In this document: piece by piece, positions 54,818 to 64,000 of the stretch
Layout: each line of letters begins with the position of its first letter
Numbering within the stretch: the stretch's first letter is position 1
Notes under the pieces: model-generated
What the model saw: only the letters and a program-made list of their open reading frames with translations
The model's database searches: none
What the model was told of the DNA's origin: nothing
From: Nitrospirota bacterium
GTDB lineage: Bacteria > Nitrospirota > Thermodesulfovibrionia > Thermodesulfovibrionales > JdFR-85
NCBI GenBank assembly: GCA_013152485.1
Contig: JAADGG010000050.1
Coordinates: 10,090 to 74,089, forward strand
Length of the DNA: 64,000 nucleotides
Reading direction: 5' to 3'
Position numbers and translations under genes: made by a program

Positions 54818-55987
54818 CTACAGCGCCTTTTTCATCCGTTCGACGGCCTCCTTGATCCGCTCCACGGACACGGTGAGGGCGAACCTTATATACCCTGCCC
54901 CTGGCTCGCCGAAACCGTTGCCGGGGGTACCGAGCACACCGGCCTTATCGAGCAGATGAACAACGAAGTCCTCCGAGGTGAACCCTTCGGGGACCCTGGC
55001 CCAAAGGTAAAAAGTTGCGTCGGGCCTGGTCACCCTCAACCCCATGTCAACAAGTCCTTCAAACAGCGCATCCCTCCTTGCCTGATAGGTGGCCCTTATG
55101 GATGACAGCAGGTTGTCGTCCGTTTCGAGAGCCACTATCGACGCCTCCTGAATGGCCTGAAAGACACCGGAGTCGAGGTTGGTCTTTATCTTGCCGAGCC
55201 CTGCGATCACCTCTCTGTTACCGACGGCAAACCCTATTCTCCAGCCCGTCATATTGTATGTCTTGGAGAGGGAGTGGAATTCGATGCCCACATCCTTTGC
55301 TCCATCCGTCTCCAGGAAGCTCAGGGGCTGCTTGTCGTCATAGTATATCTCAGAGTAAGCAGCATCATGACAGACGATGATATCGTACCTGTCCGCAATC
55401 TCGACGGCCTCATGGAAGAATTCGCTCCCTGCTGTGGCGCTCGTCGGATTGTTTGGGTAGTTCAGGAACATGATCCTTGCCCTTCTCAGGACCTCTTCGG
55501 GGATGGATGAAAAGTCGGGAAGAAAGCCCTTATCCTCGGTCAGGGGCATGAAGTAAGGCTCCCCGCCTGCAAAGAGCGCAGCTATGGAGTAGACCGGATA
55601 ACCGGGGGAGGGACACAGCACAACGTCCCCGGGATTCACAAAGGCAAGCGGTATGTGTCCGATGCCTTCTTTCGAGCCTATAAGCGAGAGCACCTCCGTG
55701 CCGGGATCGAGACTGACGTTGAACCTCCTGTCATACCATCTCGATACCGCCTCTCTATATGAAGGCATCCCGTCGTAAGACGGATACTTGTGATGCTCAG
55801 GCCTTTCCACGGCTGTTTTCATGGCTTCAACGATGTGTTGCGGGGTCGGCATGTCAGGGTCACCTATGCTCATGTCTATGAGGTCCACCCCTTTGTTTTT
55901 GGCCTCTGCCTTCATGCTGTCGATCCTGGCAAAAAGGTAGGGCGGAAGATTTTTTATCCTGTCGGCAAGTTCAATACTGATAGACAT
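54818..55987 (-). CDS. Class I/II PLP-dependent aminotransferase (LL-diaminopimelate aminotransferase-like)
   Basis: 389 aa. N-terminal LPPYLFARID..K......G.DLIDMSIGDPD.PTP, PLP-lysine region (SLSKTYNMTGWRIG), and a C-terminal IRFAL. Confidence 0.8.
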   Translation of the reverse strand: MSISIELADRIKNLPPYLFARIDSMKAEAKNKGVDLIDMSIGDPDMPTPQHIVEAMKTAVERPEHHKYPSYDGMPSYREAVSRWYDRRFNVSLDPGTEVLSLIGSKEGIGHIPLAFVNPGDVVLCPSPGYPVYSIAALFAGGEPYFMPLTEDKGFLPDFSSIPEEVLRRARIMFLNYPNNPTSATAGSEFFHEAVEIADRYDIIVCHDAAYSEIYYDDKQPLSFLETDGAKDVGIEFHSLSKTYNMTGWRIGFAVGNREVIAGLGKIKTNLDSGVFQAIQEASIVALETDDNLLSSIRATYQARRDALFEGLVDMGLRVTRPDATFYLWARVPEGFTSEDFVVHLLDKAGVLGTPGNGFGEPGAGYIRFALTVSVERIKEAVERMKKAL

Positions 55988-56237
55988 TGTACCTCCTTAA
56001 TTTGAGTTGCTGTTGCGGCAAGAATCGGAAACAAGCCGAAAGTCACATCCGAAAAAAGATTATTATAGCAGAACTGTACGGCAACAGTGCAAACTCGGTT
56101 CGCGGTACGGCGGCAACCCCTGAAGGGAAAAAGCAGGTAAAAGCAGTCGGAGCTGATCAGGAGTGACTTCGAGCAAGCCGCACCCGGGGTGTTGCGGACT
56201 CCCTGCAGCAAGAGTGAAGCAGCTCGTACGGGTGGAT

Positions 56238-56570
56238 CTAACAGACGGCTTCAGCGGGTGAGATCTCGGTAAGGTATCTTCCTACGGTGTTGCACAAGTC
56301 CAGGACGCCTTCTTCCTCCCTGACCAGGAGGTGAAACTCGCATCTCATGCAAGAGGCGTCCCCCTGCTTGCCCATCTCCTCCAGCACGTGCTGACAGCAG
56401 CTGTTCTCGATAACCCAGCAGACCCTGCCGCCGTTGACTCCGCCGTTCAGTCCGTCCGCAGAGACCTTCGTGGTAACCGGGCAGACACCGAGCTCTTCTG
56501 CGCGCATGCCGCCGGGCTCCCTGCCGCATCCCATGAATTCCCAGCAATTCAACTTCGGGTATCCTTTCAT
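56238..56570 (-). CDS. Stand-alone two-CW-domain (Cys-rich, putative metal-binding) protein
   Basis: 110 aa. LNCWEFMGCGREPGG...GVCPV......DGLNGGVNGGRVCWVIENSCC...C.RCEF matches, from memory, the two-CW domain pattern (NCWE..CGRE...CP...GG.N.GR.CW). The SD is weak. Confidence 0.65.
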   Translation of the reverse strand: MKGYPKLNCWEFMGCGREPGGMRAEELGVCPVTTKVSADGLNGGVNGGRVCWVIENSCCQHVLEEMGKQGDASCMRCEFHLLVREEEGVLDLCNTVGRYLTEISPAEAVC

Positions 56571-56687
56571 GAAATAAACTTAACATTAACCGCGGAGCCA
56601 GTAAAGGTAAAATTCACATGGGGAGGATAGCGGCCATACCCGGCAGGCTTACGGGACAGGGGAGAAAGGCGGCGGTACGGCCGGGGA

Positions 56688-56712
56688 AGGGCCGGCACGT
56701 GTGCCCGGCCCT
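56688..56712 (-). promoter_or_regulatory. GC-rich hairpin between the peptide gene and the two-CW gene (possible attenuator/processing site)
   Basis: + strand: AGGGCCGGCA-CGTG-TGCCCGGCCCT, a ~10-bp stem with one bulged C. It lies 46 nt past the peptide stop and has no U-tract. Confidence 0.35.
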
Positions 56713-56757
56713 CTCCACTCGGTCGACAGAAGTGATGTCAGCAGTGCTGCCGGACCA

Positions 56758-56973
56758 CTACCAGCAGATGTAGTACCATGTGCCGAGGGCATTCACCCAC
56801 GTGCATGGATTGCTCTGGAGGAACGTGATACTTGCGGCGTTCTTCATGTTTTTACCGTGAAGGGTCTTCTTGAACTCTCTCTTGGTCAATTTTTTCGGGG
56901 GGCCCATGTCACCCTTTTCCACCTTGACCGACCCGTCATCCATTACGGCTAACCTCATGACTACCCTCGGCAT
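56758..56973 (-). CDS. 71-aa hypothetical peptide with a Trp/Cys/Tyr-rich C-terminus
   Basis: Strong SD (GAAGGAGGT, 6-nt spacer) and host-like codon usage (AGG, AAG). Basic middle (KKLTKREFKKTLHGKNMKN). C-terminus ITFLQSNPCTWVNALGTWYYICW*. No signal peptide. Confidence 0.55.
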   Translation of the reverse strand: MPRVVMRLAVMDDGSVKVEKGDMGPPKKLTKREFKKTLHGKNMKNAASITFLQSNPCTWVNALGTWYYICW

Positions 56974-57055
56974 TACATACCTCCTTCGTATATTTGGATT
57001 TACGTCCGGACTCTCATGAACCCGGCAGCCCGAAACCCACGGTCGCGGATATCGT

Positions 57056-60000
57056 TCAGAAGGCCAACGTAACCCTGGCCACGATCAGTTGCTCCGGATA
57101 AATGGATGGATTTGTAGCGTCGGTATCCTGAAACTTGAACTTCTGATCAAACAAGTTCCGTGCCTCCACCGAAACGATACCATAGCGCCTGGAGAGCCGA
57201 TATCTTATGGAGGCATCAACCACCCAGAAATGGTCACTGTCCTCAAACGTAGCAAGGCTGAAGGGGTCGACAAACTTTCCCCTCTGAGCCACATAGGTCG
57301 CTCTCAGCATCGTCGTCAGCCCATTGCGGCTGAAGAGGGAGAGGCTCAGGGGCAGCCGCCGGGTCTTCAGGCGCTCGATGTCTTCAGGTCCGAAGTATTC
57401 AGGGCTCCTCTTGAAGTCTTCATACTGGTATTCGGCACTGATTGCGAGCCAGTACAGCGGGGTCAGGTACATGTAGAGACGGAGTTCGTCCTCTTCCCAG
57501 TCTGTCTCCTTGTTTTCAGTGACGGGTTCCGGAGAGGAAGGAGAGACCGTCACCATCCTGAACGGCACATCCAGCTTGCGCCGCGAGAGCTCCACCCCGG
57601 TGAACAGATCAGGAGAAAACTTCTGATCCACGGCAACGCCGTACCTCCAGGCATCCGTTCCGTTGGCATCATCGAAGAACTGGTTGAATCCGGCGACCTG
57701 GGTCGGTTCGATGGTCTGATTCGAGACGAGCTGTCTCTTCAGGGTCCTGAAGGCTGCGGCGCGGATGGTGGTATCAGAGGGAAGTGTCCAGGTAAGACCG
57801 ATCTTGGGATTGATCTGGCCCCTGTCTATGGTCCCGTTGTCGAAGAAGTCAGCGCTTCCCCCGATGGTCCATACAAGAGATCCGGGATAGCTGATGTGCG
57901 AATAGGCGTAAAGGTTGGTGTGGCTTACGTCGGTCTCCTCCACCGGTGAGACAGAGGTGAAATCGGGCAGGCCCGGAGTCTTGACGCTGGTCTTCGCCCT
58001 GTTCTCGACATCAGAGCTGAAATGGCCGAACCCGCTTATTATGCGGAAGTACTCGGCACTGTAAAGGTGCTGAACCTCTCCGAGGAAACCGCTCTCCTCG
58101 ATGTTAAGCCTCACCTCCGTCGTCCTGGGCACTCCATACACGAGCTCCGAAGTGGAGACACGGAAGCCGTATTCGGCACTCTTATGGATGGCTGAGGCTA
58201 TCACTTCCGAGTTCGGGGCGATCGAGTAACGGAGTCCGAGGCGTACTGACCGGGACTCTTCGTTCTCCCTCCTGGTCGGGAAGTAGGCATCGGGATCGAA
58301 ATTGAGCGAGAGGTCGCCGTTTTCCTTGTTCTTGTATCGGAGCTCGGCCTGTATGCTCATCTTGTGGGAGACGTTGTACTGGGTGAATATGTTGTAAATA
58401 TCCTCTTTCAGGTCGTTGTTTTCCCTGAAACCGTCGGTCTCGTAGTGGAACTGTCCCGCACTGAGGGAAAACCTGTCATGCACACCTGACGAGACGACTT
58501 CATCTCCGACTATGGCGTTTCCTCCGTAAACCCCGCTCAGCTGAAGTGCGATGCGGTTCCTGTTGAACAGGGGGTTGAACTCATTGAACGACAAATCCGC
58601 AGGCCCGGCGCCGTCGAAGATGAAAAGGTTGCTCTCCGCGAGTCGCGGCTGTACAGGAGTGATGTTCAGGGGCTGTAGCAGCTGGGACTGAAGCAGCTCG
58701 CTGACACGTGCTATCTCATGGCGCGGCTGGGAGGCATAGGTATCGGCAAGAAGCCTGTGGGCAGAGTAGTTCGTGGGATCGGTATTGACCGACTTCCATC
58801 CTTCCACCAGAGCAAGTCTCTGGAATCCAAGATCGCTGTAAATCCTGGCTATACTCGAGCTGCGGGCCGCAAGGTCCTCATCGAGCAGGAGCCTGGAGCG
58901 GTATACCGCACGGTTGTTATTCAGTTCTATCGCCTTCTGCATGTCGTGCAGCGCCTCTACAGGACGGTTAGTGCTCTGTTTCAGTATCGCGTCATAGAAG
59001 AACGGGGTCGGGTCATTCGGGTCGAGCTCCTCGGCTATGCCGTACTGCTCGCTCGAGAGATCGTCGCGTTTCTCTTCATAGTAAGCCTTGCCGAGATAGC
59101 TCCTCAGGATCGACTGGTTCGGATCCAGGCTTACCGCTATCTCGATCTCCCGCCGGCCTTCCTCCAGGTATCCCTGGCGGATCCTGGCAAGACCGAGGCC
59201 GAGGCGTGCGAGAGGGTCGGCCTGGTCGAGCTCGACGGCCTTCTCAAAGGCGGCCAACGCTTCCGGTATATCGGCCTGTGCAAGGCAGGCAAACCCGAGA
59301 ACCGTCTGGGTACGCGACAGGGCCGGGTTGAGCTCAACGGCCGTGTGTGCCGCATCAAGGGCCTTGTCGAGATCTCCGAAGGACAGCCTCATCTCTGACA
59401 GGCGTGCCCAGGCAAGGCTGTTTTCAGGAGCGACCTCGGTCGCCCTCAGCAGACTCCTCAGAGCCCCGTCGAGATCAAAGTTGGCCTGCTGTGCATAGGA
59501 GAGCGCGATCAGGGCCGTTGCCGACCGCGGATCGGCGTCAACGGCCCTCTGGGCAAGCATCAGCGCGCGCTCCTTGTCGTTCTGCACAACGGCGATCACC
59601 GACTGGAGTGCAACGGCCTGAACATTGTCGGGCGCCAGCGACAACGCCTGCTCTATATACCTGCGCGCCTCCTCGACACGGCCCACTGCAAGCAGCGCTG
59701 ATGCCCTGTAAGAAAGATAGAGCGGATCACTCTCATCCTCGGTTACCTCTTCGGTGTACTCCATGACGGGTGGATAGTAGAGTGCCCACTGGACCGCATC
59801 CCGCGGGCTGACCACAACCTTGAGCACAGGGGCCCTGCCCTCTTCAGCCACAGCCGACTGACCATCCGTCAATGTCAGGCTGCCGGCACTGTTGGAGGCC
59901 ACGACCTTCCCCTCGAAGACAGAGAGGCTGGTCCGCCCCTTATCAACACTGACGAGGAACTCGGTCCCTTCCACAGAGGCATTCACGTAAGGGGTTATGA

Positions 60001-60385
60001 CCTTCAAGGTCCGCGGGACACGGCTCAGGAAATGCACGACCCCCCTGATGATGTCGAGCAGGGACGTTTCTCTTCTCTCTATCCCGCTGAATGTTATGGT
60101 CGTGTTCTGGTCCAGGCGAATGATGGTTTCATTGCTGAGGACTATGGAGGCACGACTGTTTTCTCTGAGCCGGAACATGTCTCCGGAACAAAACGTATTG
60201 TTCAAGCTGACCGGCTGCCACCCTGAATCCCCGCTCCTTCTCACCTCGGCCGTTCCCTGGACGGAGACCACTCTTGCCACCACAGCCCTGCATTCCTCTG
60301 CCGCCAGGGAATGCGAGGGAAAGAGCACCGCGAGCAAAGAGACGAGCAGCAACGGCACAAACAGCCGATCAATAACAGACCTCAA
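57056..60385 (-). CDS. Secreted FecR-domain + TPR + C-terminal TonB-dependent-receptor-like beta-barrel fusion protein
   Basis: 1109 aa with a TTG start after AAGGAGG. Signal peptide (LLLVSLLAVLFPSHSLAA), then a FecR-like region (VARVVSVQGTAEVRR...GDMFRLRENSRASIVLSNETIIRLDQNTTITF). About 8 TPR-like repeats span ~230-560. The last ~500 aa are beta-strand-rich, with EARNLFDQKFKFQD and the terminal ...VARVTLAF. Confidence 0.8.
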   Translation of the reverse strand: MRSVIDRLFVPLLLVSLLAVLFPSHSLAAEECRAVVARVVSVQGTAEVRRSGDSGWQPVSLNNTFCSGDMFRLRENSRASIVLSNETIIRLDQNTTITFSGIERRETSLLDIIRGVVHFLSRVPRTLKVITPYVNASVEGTEFLVSVDKGRTSLSVFEGKVVASNSAGSLTLTDGQSAVAEEGRAPVLKVVVSPRDAVQWALYYPPVMEYTEEVTEDESDPLYLSYRASALLAVGRVEEARRYIEQALSLAPDNVQAVALQSVIAVVQNDKERALMLAQRAVDADPRSATALIALSYAQQANFDLDGALRSLLRATEVAPENSLAWARLSEMRLSFGDLDKALDAAHTAVELNPALSRTQTVLGFACLAQADIPEALAAFEKAVELDQADPLARLGLGLARIRQGYLEEGRREIEIAVSLDPNQSILRSYLGKAYYEEKRDDLSSEQYGIAEELDPNDPTPFFYDAILKQSTNRPVEALHDMQKAIELNNNRAVYRSRLLLDEDLAARSSSIARIYSDLGFQRLALVEGWKSVNTDPTNYSAHRLLADTYASQPRHEIARVSELLQSQLLQPLNITPVQPRLAESNLFIFDGAGPADLSFNEFNPLFNRNRIALQLSGVYGGNAIVGDEVVSSGVHDRFSLSAGQFHYETDGFRENNDLKEDIYNIFTQYNVSHKMSIQAELRYKNKENGDLSLNFDPDAYFPTRRENEESRSVRLGLRYSIAPNSEVIASAIHKSAEYGFRVSTSELVYGVPRTTEVRLNIEESGFLGEVQHLYSAEYFRIISGFGHFSSDVENRAKTSVKTPGLPDFTSVSPVEETDVSHTNLYAYSHISYPGSLVWTIGGSADFFDNGTIDRGQINPKIGLTWTLPSDTTIRAAAFRTLKRQLVSNQTIEPTQVAGFNQFFDDANGTDAWRYGVAVDQKFSPDLFTGVELSRRKLDVPFRMVTVSPSSPEPVTENKETDWEEDELRLYMYLTPLYWLAISAEYQYEDFKRSPEYFGPEDIERLKTRRLPLSLSLFSRNGLTTMLRATYVAQRGKFVDPFSLATFEDSDHFWVVDASIRYRLSRRYGIVSVEARNLFDQKFKFQDTDATNPSIYPEQLIVARVTLAF

Positions 60386-60509
60386 GTATACTTCCTCCTT
60401 TACCGGGGGAAACGCTCACCCCTGTCGACAAACATTTCCTTTAAAATATTATTCCCTTAAGCATGTATACACAAAGGGGTTGCCGGTACTCATATATTAC
60501 ACACTGCAT

Positions 60510-62759
60510 CTATTTTTTTTCCAGACAAATAACGCCCTCCCATGGCTCTGGAGGCGGATTTCTCCTGTAACGGGATATCAACTCGATATAGAAACCGGAC
60601 GGGCCGTCTTCTCCGTGTTTTCTTATTATATCATCAAACCTCTCCATTGCATATTCCCACTGCCTGCGTCTGAAGGCGTCAAGGGCCTCGGCAAAACTCG
60701 AACATATGGCTCGCTGTCTTTCCGTCACCCTGTCGACGCGGTTCACCAGTTCAAACACCTTGACCGGTTTTGCCTTGCCGTAGAGGAGAAACGTACCGAG
60801 TTCCCTCGTCTGGATTCCCCCGACGTCCTTTACCGTCTCTTCAGAGGCGAGCAGGTATGTGCCGAGGTGCTTGTTCAGGCCCTCTATGCGCGCCGTGGTA
60901 TTGACGATATCCCCGATGGGGCGGTACTCGTAGTGATCAATCGCACCGATGTTTCCAAGCAGAAAACTGCCGAAGTGCAGACCTACCCTTGTCGATATCC
61001 TGATACCTTCCGAGGAGCGGTTGAACCCCCTCACCGCATCGGCCAGGTCGATCGCAGCGAGGCATGCATTCTCCCTCTGCAGCTTATCGGGGCCGGCCGA
61101 GACCCACAAGGCGAGCATCGAGTCGGCGAAGACGTTTGATACAACACCGCCGTAACGTTTCACGGGACCGAATATGGTTTCATAATACCGCTGAATGAAC
61201 CTGCCGAGCTCGTCCGGCTCCATCGACTCCGACAGTGACGTGTAGTGTTCGAGGTCGGTATACAGACACGTGCCGCTGACCACCCGGCCCTCTGCACTGA
61301 CGTCACTCATATCCCTTATCAACGCATCCACGATCTCCTCGGGCAGGTAGTAGCTGATCGCCCTCCTGATCTTACGCTTCTCCCTGCCCGCATCGACGTG
61401 TTTCCATATAACAGCCCCGAAGAGAGACGCAGGTGACTGTATCAGGCAGGGCACCACGAGAGGATACCAGGAACCGTCGACGCTGAACCTGTCCAGTGCA
61501 AGATATACATACAGCACATTGATGGCTGCAATGAAGACCGCCGCAGGGATAAAGGGCAGGACAAAGGCCGCCAGGCCGAGGAGCAACCCGAAAGTGACGG
61601 CCACAGCGGCAAGCAGTGACACGTCCGCCGGCCTGACGTGCATATCCTCGAGTATGTTTGCAAATGCAGTCGCCGCAATCTCCACACCGTTCAGGTCCAA
61701 ACCGTCGGAAGTGGTGAAGACGGTATAGAAGCCGTCTTTCTGCAGGTACGGCAGAGTCTCTGCCTGCCCGACGAAAACCACCTTACCTCTGAAGTCCATC
61801 ACTTCGTCATCACCGTCCCCCCCTCCTCCGGACATGTACAACACCTTGTGATAGGGCACTGTTGTGACGGTCCTGGAAGGACCGTAGAAGTTGAGATACC
61901 GACTGTCGGGCCCCTGATACATCCTTATCAGTGCCGTCAGTATCCGTCTCTTACGCGGATCCGGGAAACCGTTCAACTCTGCAAGCATCGAATCCGCCAC
62001 GCCGGGATTCTTCCGGAAGACTTCCCTGACGGCGGTGACGAGTTCAACGACCCGTCCGGAGTCCAGGATCTCATCCTTGTCGAGAGACAGCACGCCCGGG
62101 TCACCACGATAGTGCCTCCTGAGCAGGGACACGAACTCGTCATGCACCTGAAACGCATACACCTGAAATGCCACAACAGGGAGGGTGGGCGTATCACCGG
62201 CCGACGTCTTGAACGTCCAGTACTGGTTTACACGGAAAGGCAGCTTGGGCAGAGGGAAAGGTGCCAAGGCCGCTGCGTGCCTTGCAAGGGGAGGGATCGG
62301 CGGGACCAGTTCCTCTATATCCAGCCTTGCCGAAAAACCGCCGTTCGGTTTTCCGAAGGGGACGATCTCCTTCTTAAGGAATTCACAGAAGACTACATTG
62401 CGGGCCTTGCGCACTGCTTCCGCAAAGACACGGTCGTTCCACGGATCACTCTCCTCGTCAAAGGTTACATCAAAGACGATGACTTCCGCCCCGGCACTCA
62501 CAAGGTTCTCTATGACCCTGGCATGAAGCGCACGGGGCCAGTCAACGGGACGGTTCGGCAGGTTCAGCACATCGGAAGATGCCTTGTCGATGTTCACGAC
62601 AACGACATCAGGAGGAGCCTCCCTCTTCCCCCGCAGCTTGAACAGCATGGAGAGCCCGAGACTCTCCTCCATGGAATGCCCGAATGCCGTCAGGCTCAGG
62701 ACGATTCCCAGAACCCCGGCAACCAGCCCCAGAACGACCGATTTCAATAGCTTGGACAT
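60510..62759 (-). CDS. CHASE2-sensor class III adenylate/guanylate cyclase
   Basis: 749 aa: N-terminal TM, a ~330-aa periplasmic CHASE2-like region (VVVVNIDKAS...VIVFDVTF), then three TMs. The cyclase domain shows the metal Asp residues (YTDLEHYT, ADSMLALW) and GDIVNTTARIEG. Confidence 0.88.
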   Translation of the reverse strand: MSKLLKSVVLGLVAGVLGIVLSLTAFGHSMEESLGLSMLFKLRGKREAPPDVVVVNIDKASSDVLNLPNRPVDWPRALHARVIENLVSAGAEVIVFDVTFDEESDPWNDRVFAEAVRKARNVVFCEFLKKEIVPFGKPNGGFSARLDIEELVPPIPPLARHAAALAPFPLPKLPFRVNQYWTFKTSAGDTPTLPVVAFQVYAFQVHDEFVSLLRRHYRGDPGVLSLDKDEILDSGRVVELVTAVREVFRKNPGVADSMLAELNGFPDPRKRRILTALIRMYQGPDSRYLNFYGPSRTVTTVPYHKVLYMSGGGGDGDDEVMDFRGKVVFVGQAETLPYLQKDGFYTVFTTSDGLDLNGVEIAATAFANILEDMHVRPADVSLLAAVAVTFGLLLGLAAFVLPFIPAAVFIAAINVLYVYLALDRFSVDGSWYPLVVPCLIQSPASLFGAVIWKHVDAGREKRKIRRAISYYLPEEIVDALIRDMSDVSAEGRVVSGTCLYTDLEHYTSLSESMEPDELGRFIQRYYETIFGPVKRYGGVVSNVFADSMLALWVSAGPDKLQRENACLAAIDLADAVRGFNRSSEGIRISTRVGLHFGSFLLGNIGAIDHYEYRPIGDIVNTTARIEGLNKHLGTYLLASEETVKDVGGIQTRELGTFLLYGKAKPVKVFELVNRVDRVTERQRAICSSFAEALDAFRRRQWEYAMERFDDIIRKHGEDGPSGFYIELISRYRRNPPPEPWEGVICLEKK

Positions 62760-63010
62760 CTGTCAGTTGTCATGCCGCAGTGACCCGTATGGAGAAAAAA
62801 AACCGATATGATATACTATTCAAATTACAGAGCCTGTGCTCATCGACCATATTTCTTGATGCTCATACCGGGGAGATCGATATCGTCTGTAAGACGCTCA
62901 AGATGTTAAGGTATCATATGGGGATTTTGATGTCAAGGAAGCATTGCGCTCCACGGGCAGGCTGAAGCGGCCGAGAAAGAACAGGAAACGTACCGGTTCA
63001 CAGCAAAGGA

Positions 63011-63766
63011 TTGTCACTGTCACCGGACCATGACCCGAGACAGGGGACCCAGGAATGCTACAATGATCTTGAAGGAAACAAACGCCTTGTCGGTAAGTTT
63101 CTGAAGAGGGTTCCGGCGTTCAGAAGCCTCTCCGACAAACGCATAAACCAGCTGATCAACGACTTCACCATCCATACCTTTCATGCAGGTGAAACAGTAT
63201 TCTACCAGACCGACAACAGTACGGACCTGTACATAATCCTCGAGGGCGGTGTCAAGGTGACGCTGCTGAGTGAAGAGGGAGAGGAGTTCGTCCTGGCAGA
63301 CCTGCATCAGGGAGACTTCTTCGGGGAAATGAGTCTCATTGACGGCAAACCGCGTTCTGCATCCGTTATTGCGGACGAGGACTCGACCTTCGCGGTCCTG
63401 GAGAGAAAAAGGTTTCTCGAGGCAATAAAACATGACCCCGAGATCGCCATCGATCTCCTGAAATCCCTGGTGGAGAGACTGAGAAACGCAACAGAGAGAG
63501 AGGAAAGCCTCGCATTCCTGGCAGTACAGCAAAGGCTCGTCAGGCTGTTCATGAAACTGGCGAAAGACGAGGGAATGAAGACGGCGGAGGGCTCCTATGT
63601 CGTCAAGAAACGGACTCACAAGGAGATCGCTGAAAGGGTCGGGGCATCAAGGGAGTCCATATCGAAGGTCATGAAAAGGCTGATCTCGAACAAGAGGATA
63701 ATCGAGGACGGAGACAGATTTCTGATCTCTCGCGACCTGTTCGAAGACCTTGATGTTCAAGGCTGA
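63011..63766 (+). CDS. Crp/Fnr-family cyclic-nucleotide-binding transcriptional regulator
   Basis: cNMP-binding motif (FFGEMSLIDGKPRSASVIA) and C-terminal HTH (THKEIAERVGASRESISKVMKRL). No in-frame ATG lies near the 5' end, so the TTG 63011 start is uncertain. Confidence 0.85.
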   Translation: MSLSPDHDPRQGTQECYNDLEGNKRLVGKFLKRVPAFRSLSDKRINQLINDFTIHTFHAGETVFYQTDNSTDLYIILEGGVKVTLLSEEGEEFVLADLHQGDFFGEMSLIDGKPRSASVIADEDSTFAVLERKRFLEAIKHDPEIAIDLLKSLVERLRNATEREESLAFLAVQQRLVRLFMKLAKDEGMKTAEGSYVVKKRTHKEIAERVGASRESISKVMKRLISNKRIIEDGDRFLISRDLFEDLDVQG

Positions 63767-63805
63767 GCACATCAAGTCTTCAGCGGCTCCCGCAGGCGGC
63801 CTCCG

Positions 63806-64000
63806 TCAGCGCCCCGGTCCTGTTTCCGTTATCATACCTCCACCGAGCACAACGTCCCCGTTGTAGAAGACCGCACTCTGTCCGGGAGCGGGGGCCCACT
63901 GGGGCTCGTCAAAGATCAACCTTACCGAACCGTTCTCCTCTGTCACGAGCACCGCAGGCTCATCCTTCATCATGGACCGTATCTTCGCCGTAACCCTCTC
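63806..64000 (-). CDS. mnmA: C-terminal fragment of tRNA 2-thiouridylase MnmA (5' end lies outside the window)
   Basis: Reverse translation is ...[68 protein letters not shown]....PGQ.AVFY.G..VLGGG.I is the conserved MnmA C-terminus. Confidence 0.7.

Follow-up and report, generated by a model that had tools for sequence, protein, structure and literature searches.

A probable NsrA/CyaK-type trans-envelope signalling operon with a small third component in a Nitrospirota bacterium

How an event at the outer membrane might be passed to a nucleotidyl cyclase in the inner membrane is the question raised by a gene cluster in the window, that is, the whole 64,000-nucleotide stretch of contig JAADGG010000050.1 from a Nitrospirota bacterium that was analyzed here. 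In this cluster, genes for a CHASE2 class III nucleotidyl cyclase, a FecR-TPR-barrel protein, a small Trp/Cys protein, and a two-CW domain protein follow one another on the minus strand, and a Crp/Fnr-family regulator is encoded divergently. An earlier note had read these five open reading frames (ORFs) as one signalling module and knew of no described system of this composition. The five ORFs, the gaps of 124, 82, and 187 nt (cyclase/barrel, barrel/small protein, and small protein/two-CW, respectively), and the 251-bp divergent region were reproduced exactly, and each domain call was recovered using Pfam and NCBIfam. The claim of novelty did not hold, as the signalling cascade of Sinorhizobium meliloti and a published Campylobacterota cluster are precedents. 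The cluster is a distant relative of the described S. meliloti surface-to-cyclic-nucleotide system and not a new kind of system. Its core was concluded, with a probability of about 0.72, to be a three-gene operon of the cyclase, barrel, and small-protein genes that acts as an NsrA/CyaK-type trans-envelope signalling device.

The relationship to the rhizobial system was evident from the barrel protein (57056–60385, minus strand, 1109 residues). When this protein was compared with plasmid records by tblastn, matches were obtained on Sinorhizobium, Ensifer, Rhizobium, and Methylocystis replicons. On S. meliloti pSymB and in Rhizobium BG4 and Methylocystis, the match was a 'FecR domain-containing protein' of 1190–1221 residues with a CHASE2 cyclase directly downstream, and on pSymB this cyclase is annotated as cyaK. 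The 1190-residue pSymB protein shows the same arrangement of a FecR domain, TPRs, and a weakly matching barrel as the 1109-residue protein, with BLASTP E-values of 4e-23 for the N-terminus and 3e-6 for the C-terminal barrel. Moreover, hhalign against the rhizobial NsrA family gave a probability of 99.95% and an E-value of 1.9e-37 over 994 columns (residues 48–1106 against 27–1184), and CyaK matched the 749-residue cyclase of the window at 2e-26. The pSymB gene upstream of cyaK was assigned as NsrA by position and size; in a 2018 paper, nsrA is reportedly the gene immediately upstream of cyaK. The size of the pSymB protein agrees with the barrel span of residues 600–1200 published for NsrA.

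In S. meliloti, three CHASE2 cyclases, namely, CyaD1, CyaD2, and CyaK, produce cyclic AMP (cAMP) that is read by the Crp-like protein Clr (Tian 2012; Sorroche 2020). The published genetics place NsrA upstream of Clr as necessary for signal perception by CyaK and CyaD1/D2, and NsrA-dependent signalling answers added protein signals. Moreover, clr (SMc02175), cyaD1 (SMc02176), and a FecR-domain gene (smc02177) are neighbours on the chromosome, and SMc02178, next to smc02177, encodes a periplasmic protein. The Nitrospirota cluster resembles this cascade in having an outer-membrane protein of approximately 1100–1200 residues (signal peptide, FecR domain, TPRs, and C-terminal barrel) beside a CHASE2 class III cyclase, with a Crp-family regulator as the putative reader, and the homology runs from end to end. 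In contrast, the specificity pair is Lys/Ser in CyaK (adenylate-type) and Asn/Arg here, and the host is a symbiont there and a free-living Nitrospirota here. The rhizobial loci also contain a gene for a small PycTM (Pycsar-effector transmembrane) protein, which is absent from this locus. This protein (Pfam E 9e-12) is encoded divergently from nsrA-cyaK on S. meliloti pSymB (L003:2249–2794) and in Rhizobium sp. BG4 (L001:6205–6744), and may be a second cyclic-nucleotide-linked component there.

The architecture of the barrel protein was examined using Pfam and a structure model. Pfam matched a FecR domain (E 3e-15), many TPRs, and, weakly, an outer-membrane protein barrel. The AlphaFold2 model, built from a 117-sequence alignment, reached a predicted local distance difference test (pLDDT) score of 81 and a predicted template modelling (pTM) score of 0.75. 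It comprises an N-terminal signal helix or peptide, a FecR-like beta-sandwich (residues 35–181), a TPR solenoid (221–570), an unstructured linker (571–610), and a 22-strand barrel (611–1108) ending in a C-terminal Phe. With its signal peptide, this barrel, and the terminal Phe, the protein has the make-up of an outer-membrane receptor, namely, a large secreted protein with a C-terminal beta-barrel. The best Foldseek matches in the PDB were the TonB-dependent transporters and transducers FpvA, FhuE, FptA, FoxA, FhuA, and FecA, with E-values of 1e-17 to 1e-14. No Plug or STN domain was matched by Pfam in the protein, and the N-terminus, where the signal peptide is followed by the FecR domain, leaves no space for a TonB box. 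The model thus points to a plug-less 22-strand barrel of the TonB-dependent-transporter type, which seems to be undescribed. The picture of a rewired cell-surface signalling route drawn in the earlier note is thus structurally apt: the model joins a transducer-type barrel to a domain of the sort to which such a barrel usually passes its signal. The public gene call of this protein is 1100 residues long, against 1109 for the maximal ORF.

The barrel and cyclase genes recur together in other genomes. At E ≤ 1e-10, the barrel protein has more than 6500 database matches, among them full-length relatives of 55–81% identity from Nitrospirota, Desulfobacterota, and anammox bacteria. For synteny, 80 loci with 10-kb flanks were kept from 580 confirmed relatives (one genome per species scanned); they were drawn from Nitrospirota, Desulfobacterota, Brocadia, Rokubacteria, Gamma- and Betaproteobacteria, and Spirochaetia. 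At 50 of these loci, a gene for a CHASE2 cyclase is found no more than 10 kb from the barrel gene. The pairing with FecR-TPR-barrel fusions, whose recurrence in unrelated genomes had been named as a check of the module, thus extends across phyla. At 35 loci, a closely related CHASE2 cyclase is encoded immediately upstream of the barrel gene on the same strand (hereafter type A); at 3, the immediately upstream cyclase is cut by the contig end; and at 12, a closely related one lies elsewhere in the flank. The remainder comprises a more distant cyclase (12 loci), a CHASE2-SpoIIE phosphatase in place of the cyclase (4), and no CHASE2 partner found (14, of which 10 are on short contigs). These partner counts over the 80 loci identify the barrel protein and a CHASE2 protein as the conserved core, with variable output. 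The SpoIIE-type (PP2C-type phosphatase) partners lie at L017:14295–16490, L020:4974–7190, L022:7821–9965, and L034:20415–22556, and the architecture of the first was confirmed using Pfam. Their presence indicates that the barrel/CHASE2 pairing is independent of the output domain.

The cyclase (60510–62759, minus strand, 749 residues) is predicted to sit in the inner membrane. Pfam matched CHASE2 (E 1.9e-27) and Guanylate_cyc (E 5e-6), and with hydropathy the layout was resolved into a first transmembrane segment, a periplasmic CHASE2 domain (approximately residues 30–375), a transmembrane cluster (377–452), and the cyclase domain (approximately 490–650). An approximately 100-residue C-terminal extension (residues ~650–749; 60510–60800) is kept across the cyclase family and parallels the structurally uncharacterised C-terminal extension of Synechocystis Cya2. 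The nearest solved relatives of the cyclase domain include Cya2 itself (2W01) and a Cya2-derived cyclase (6FHT). An exhaustive search returned 4354 cluster representatives at E ≤ 1e-30 to this cyclase, and residue conservation was counted in the top 150, all of full length. The metal-binding Asp pair and the transition-state Asn and Arg are all present, and these residues, D502, D546, N620, and R624, are kept in 150, 149, 146, and 147 of the 150 representatives, respectively. Given this conservation, an inactive domain is unlikely and the enzyme looks catalytically competent. A pseudo-enzyme, which the weak Pfam score could have implied, was rejected on the same ground of invariant catalytic residues. 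Among other homologues, P0134, of 1116 residues, carries an N-terminal extension of approximately 370 residues ahead of CHASE2. A lead to Rhodospirillum centenum GcyA and cyclic GMP (cGMP) was dropped; the Azospirillum cyclase match that had prompted it lies in an unrelated context, and the literature search gave nothing relevant.

The product of the cyclase depends on its specificity pair, which is N542/R613 in this protein and Asp/Arg in the family consensus. At position 542, which corresponds to the specificity Lys, 105 of the 150 representatives have D, 23 have N, and 2 have K; at position 613, the Asp/Thr position, 112 have R. N542/R613 corresponds to neither the adenylate cyclase pair (Lys with Asp, Thr, or Ser) nor the guanylate cyclase pair (Glu with Cys, Gly, or Ser), so that the product cannot be called from the sequence; a non-Lys acidic or amide residue is nearer to the guanylate pattern. 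No description of an Asp/Asn-Arg pair could be found. Across the loci, the pair is D/R in 17 and N/R in 9 of 38 type A cyclases, E/G in 9 of 12 distant type D/E cyclases, and K/S in all 3 rhizobial CyaK proteins. The Glu/Gly cyclases beside NsrA-like genes lie at L025, L033, L037, L038, L040, L046, L078, L080, and L081. Since E/G is also the pair of the guanylate cyclase Cya2, some NsrA-type modules are probably cGMP systems. Non-canonical pairs are also found in the mycobacterial cyclases Rv1900c (Asn/Asp) and Rv0386 (Gln/Asn), which are still active and less specific. Cya2 shares CHASE2, transmembrane segments, a cyclase domain, and a C-terminal extension with the enzyme studied here, and differs in having Glu/Gly instead of Asn/Arg, with E488 equivalent to N542. 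It is a CHASE2-regulated guanylate cyclase that E488K alone converts to an adenylate cyclase (PMC5995499). Because the residue equivalent to Glu488 is Asp or Asn in this family and not Lys, we lean towards cGMP as the product.

The third gene of the proposed operon encodes a 71-residue protein (56758–56973, minus strand) that carries C57, W59, W66, C70, and W71 and has no match among Pfam or NCBIfam models. ORFs of 60–135 residues were found directly downstream of the barrel gene at many loci. They form a very divergent family (mean column identity 25%) with an N-terminal motif, h-x-h-x-h-D-x-x-G-x-h-x-x-V, and a C-terminal motif, NP-x-C-x-W...G-x-W-Y-x-x-C, in which the two Cys of the 71-residue protein are spaced as C-x12-C; a C-x12-13-C spacing at the extreme C-terminus is seen in 15 of 29 members. 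These 29 are the matches of a hidden Markov model (HMM) that was built from 22 members and iterated over 11,873 ORFs from the loci and the window at E ≤ 1e-3, and 28 of them lie within approximately 520 nt downstream of an NsrA-like gene. As such a concentration among 11,873 ORFs would not be expected of a chance ORF, that reading was rejected and the 71-residue ORF was not considered spurious. Several weaker matches resembled these in type and location, and of the 73 loci with enough downstream sequence, 27 have the family by the strict HMM and approximately 45 by eye. The 29th match is a second copy at a deltaproteobacterial locus (L011:15391–15744), 2 kb downstream of the first.

A database search with the small protein returned 13 unnamed proteins without Pfam domains, its sensitivity being limited by the word index and the short query; two homologues outside the locus set also directly follow FecR-TPR-barrel genes. 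At L041, L056, and L085, the small gene accompanies a barrel gene without a nearby cyclase, and in the rhizobial loci no homologue was found by the HMM. The small protein is thus a widely conserved third component that tracks the barrel gene rather than the cyclase gene, and it is most likely a partner of the outer-membrane protein. Its proposed membership in the module was borne out; only the cyclase is linked to the barrel gene more consistently. A signal-peptide-like N-terminus is present in 5–6 of the 29 members, and lipobox-like sequences were seen by eye in some, mostly gammaproteobacterial; the 71-residue copy has no signal peptide. The structure model was of low confidence (pLDDT 62), and the fold search with this low-confidence model gave no significant match. 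No description of the family was found in the literature searched. At two related metagenomic loci (L085:8339–12249 and L088:3276–7061), genes for a radical-SAM enzyme, a 45-residue ORF, and an ABC exporter, which resemble those of a system for a ribosomally made peptide that is modified after translation (RiPP), are convergent to the small-protein gene.

The fourth minus-strand gene stands apart. It encodes a two-CW domain protein of 110 residues (56238–56570; NCBIfam NF045718, E 1e-25, 89.8 bits against a cut-off of 35) that has 10 Cys, no transmembrane segment, and no signal peptide, and belongs to a family of mostly stand-alone proteins of approximately 100 residues. By tblastn, the gene was found at only two of the 80 loci (L004 and L005) and was absent from 78, and these two share even the housekeeping flanks of the window and are hence uninformative on linkage. 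At L089/L090, where the barrel protein is 66% identical, the four-gene order is kept despite different flanking genes, so that within this Nitrospirota clade the linkage is genuine. It was seen only where the barrel protein is at least 66% identical, and two-CW homologues at 53–55% identity lie in unrelated contexts. Consequently, the idea that the two-CW protein is a general component of the module was not upheld. The public gene call of 98 residues starts beyond the first CW motif, and the 110-residue start is preferable since the shorter call loses a CW motif matched by the NCBIfam model.

The gap before the two-CW gene also suggests a transcript boundary. In the window, L004, L005, and L089, a GC-rich hairpin of differing sequence lies at the same position between the small-protein stop codon and the two-CW start, and a T-tract follows it in L005 and L089. 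The hairpin of the window taken alone is weak (no U-tract, z = -1.6), and a consensus scan of the three gaps found no minus-strand terminator. The shared position nonetheless makes it probable that the stem-loop at 56689–56711 (minus strand) terminates, or marks the 3' end of, a transcript of the cyclase, barrel, and small-protein genes. A promoter-like block 5' of the two-CW gene (56571–56620, minus strand) is invariant in the four genomes and contains TGTGAATTTTACCTTTAC at approximately 56601–56618, while the remainder of the gap has diverged. In view of the conserved hairpin and this invariant block, the two-CW gene is probably transcribed separately, and its product, without a signal peptide and with 10 Cys, is probably a cytoplasmic Cys-rich protein and a lineage-specific neighbour.

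On the other side of the cyclase gene lies the Crp/Fnr-family regulator (63011–63766, plus strand, 251 residues). Pfam matched cNMP_binding (E 2e-24) and a C-terminal helix-turn-helix domain, HTH_Crp_2 (E 1.6e-8); the phosphate-binding cassette (FGE...RSA) is intact, with FGEMSLIDGKPRSAS present; and the PDB matches included E. coli CAP (1e-26) and S. meliloti Clr (7PZA, 3.6e-21). The published contact residues of Clr were matched, except for a helix pair that, in a hand alignment of the helix, is A-T here and T-T in Clr. By sequence, the protein is a bona fide member of the CRP branch. At 7 of the 35 type A loci, the cyclase gene has a Crp-family gene as its direct neighbour, and five of these 7 loci are distant (L028, L039, L067, L068, and L077, mostly gammaproteobacterial). 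In the 251-bp divergent region between the cyclase and Crp genes (62760–63010), two blocks, at approximately 62785–62825 and 62907–62941, are conserved in the two closest relatives (L004 and L005). Both contain ATATGATA(C/T), in opposite orientation, and are candidates for promoters or operators that serve the Crp gene and the cyclase operon. A consensus scan gave a promoter-like match at 62790–62817.

On these findings, a signalling route can be proposed. The outer-membrane barrel protein would extend a periplasmic arm, a TPR solenoid ending in the FecR-like beta-sandwich, and we infer that this arm touches the CHASE2 domain of the cyclase in the inner membrane. A surface or envelope event would thereby alter cyclic-nucleotide synthesis in the cytoplasm, with signalling presumed to run inward, and the divergently encoded Crp-family protein would be the likely local reader of the nucleotide. 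The earlier note had drawn the same line from barrel through FecR/TPR and CHASE2 to cyclic nucleotide and Crp; this route gained support from the homology to the S. meliloti cascade and from the cross-phylum synteny of barrel and cyclase, but the adjacency of Crp genes is sporadic. Several points weigh against the reading as an NsrA/CyaK-type device. A physical contact between FecR/TPR and CHASE2 is not known from any system. The identity to the NsrA protein is approximately 22–26%, the assignment of the pSymB gene as nsrA depends on position and size, and the order of the genes is inverted, with the cyclase gene first here and nsrA first in rhizobia. The Pfam match of the cyclase domain is weak, at 26.6 bits. 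The Crp gene is missing from most loci, L089 included, and neither a CRP box (TGTGA-N6-TCACA) nor a Clr box (TGTT-N8-AACA) was found in 62760–63010, with no excess of either in the window. Finally, most small-protein members, the 71-residue copy included, are without a signal peptide, which fits poorly with a periplasmic partner.

Other explanations were weighed against the same evidence. The outer-membrane-anchored TPR/FecR arm might constitutively touch CHASE2, so that the cyclase reports envelope integrity, periplasmic width, or outer-membrane stress and not an external molecule. Such an envelope sensor would suit a barrel without a plug, TonB box, or recognisable ligand site, a long rigid TPR solenoid that could serve as a spacer, the wide occurrence of the module in free-living anaerobes without a host, and the pairing of the barrel gene with CHASE2-SpoIIE phosphatases. 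We consider it unlikely: NsrA-dependent signalling in S. meliloti responds to added protein signals, and the sequence does not discriminate between an envelope sensor and a ligand receptor. The idea that the small protein is itself a self-made signal or plug, released or exported and afterwards either perceived by the plug-less barrel or lodged in it in an autocrine or quorum-type circuit, is more doubtful. It draws on the small genes that follow barrel genes lacking a nearby cyclase, on the C-terminal C-x12-C hairpin of 15 members, a spacing typical of disulfide-stapled extracytoplasmic peptides, on the signal-peptide-like or lipobox-like N-termini of a minority, and on the protein nature of the known NsrA signal. 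However, approximately 23 of the 29 members have no signal peptide, no export gene is linked, and the low-confidence AlphaFold2 model gave no fold match.

The original five-gene module, with the peptide and the two-CW protein both as accessories or ligands whose genes share a transcript with those of the cyclase and barrel, was judged improbable. The four-gene order at L089/L090 despite differing flanks speaks for it, but this is the sole other linked case found: the two-CW gene is absent from 78 of 80 loci, the two exceptions share the housekeeping flanks of the window, and related two-CW genes sit in unrelated contexts. Moreover, the hairpin and the conserved promoter-like block separate the peptide gene from the two-CW gene, whose product is probably cytoplasmic. 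It is highly improbable that the barrel protein serves uptake, as a channel or transporter, beside a merely co-regulated cyclase. Transporters of the TonB-dependent type are indeed its best structural matches, and some databases label homologues 'TonB-dependent receptor', but plug and TonB box are lacking, FecR and TPR occupy the N-terminus, the CHASE2 linkage holds whatever the output domain, and the NsrA genetics point to signalling.

The NsrA/CyaK-type reading bears on the CHASE2 domain at large. To our knowledge, CHASE2, which is among the commonest bacterial extracytoplasmic sensor domains, has no known ligand, and the only functional lead we know of is the S. meliloti NsrA work, which was framed as a peculiarity of symbiosis. 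The pairing of NsrA with CHASE2 is instead a general, phylum-spanning device: the barrel protein is encoded in at least 580 species genomes, and related cyclases number more than 4000 (cluster representatives at E ≤ 1e-30). Its outputs are interchangeable among adenylate-type, guanylate-type, and Asp/Arg-type cyclases and SpoIIE phosphatases, and it includes a previously unannotated small partner protein. A bolder and distinctly speculative extension, which we think rather unlikely, holds that a large uncharacterised NsrA-type branch, with thousands of cyclases and barrel proteins, spans anaerobic phyla, in which a dedicated small disulfide-hairpin protein would act as an in-trans plug, co-receptor, or self-made ligand of the plug-less barrel, and in which the product of the Asp/Asn-Arg cyclase would be cGMP or else a non-canonical cyclic nucleotide, and not cAMP. 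If this were true, CHASE2 domains would generally sense a protein partner, a FecR-domain protein, and not a small molecule.

Other known systems combine the same parts differently. In Campylobacterota, a survey found CHASE2 cyclase genes grouped with those of a phosphodiesterase, a TPR protein, and an outer-membrane protein carrying a FecR domain (Mo et al., mBio 2022, PMC9239204), and its authors propose one pathway spread by horizontal transfer (PMC9239204). That cluster shares the CHASE2 cyclase, the FecR-domain outer-membrane protein, and TPRs with the present one; unlike it, the TPRs form a separate gene there, whereas FecR, TPR, and barrel are one polypeptide here, a phosphodiesterase is present there and none here, and no small protein was reported there. 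In Burkholderia and Pseudomonas, a LysM-FecR protein is paired with a CHASE2 histidine kinase in an operon (PMC5192318). A secreted FecR-domain protein is again encoded beside a CHASE2 receptor, with a peptidoglycan-binding LysM anchor instead of the TPR-barrel and a histidine kinase and response regulator as output, and this operon supports the FecR-domain protein and CHASE2 as a general sensory pair. With Fec-type systems (FecA-FecR-FecI), the cluster shares a 22-strand barrel of the TonB-dependent-transporter type and a FecR-type periplasmic domain that pass a signal from the outer membrane to the inner one, and the best structural matches of the barrel protein include FecA, FpvA, and FoxA. 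In contrast to those systems, the barrel and the FecR-like domain are fused here, without a plug, N-terminal signalling domain, or TonB box; the output is a nucleotidyl cyclase; and the only FecR domain lies in the secreted outer-membrane protein. No extracytoplasmic function (ECF) sigma family or transmembrane anti-sigma match above cut-off was obtained in the five module proteins, nor an ECF sigma match in the three flanking proteins scanned.

An Rfam scan of the region from about 56 kb to the end of the window (55900–64000) gave no match, and promoter matches in the consensus scan were slightly above expectation. Housekeeping genes flank the cluster. By family scan, an aminotransferase, HPPK, and hisH lie on one side; on the other side is an mnmA-like fragment, named by reading its sequence only and without a family search.

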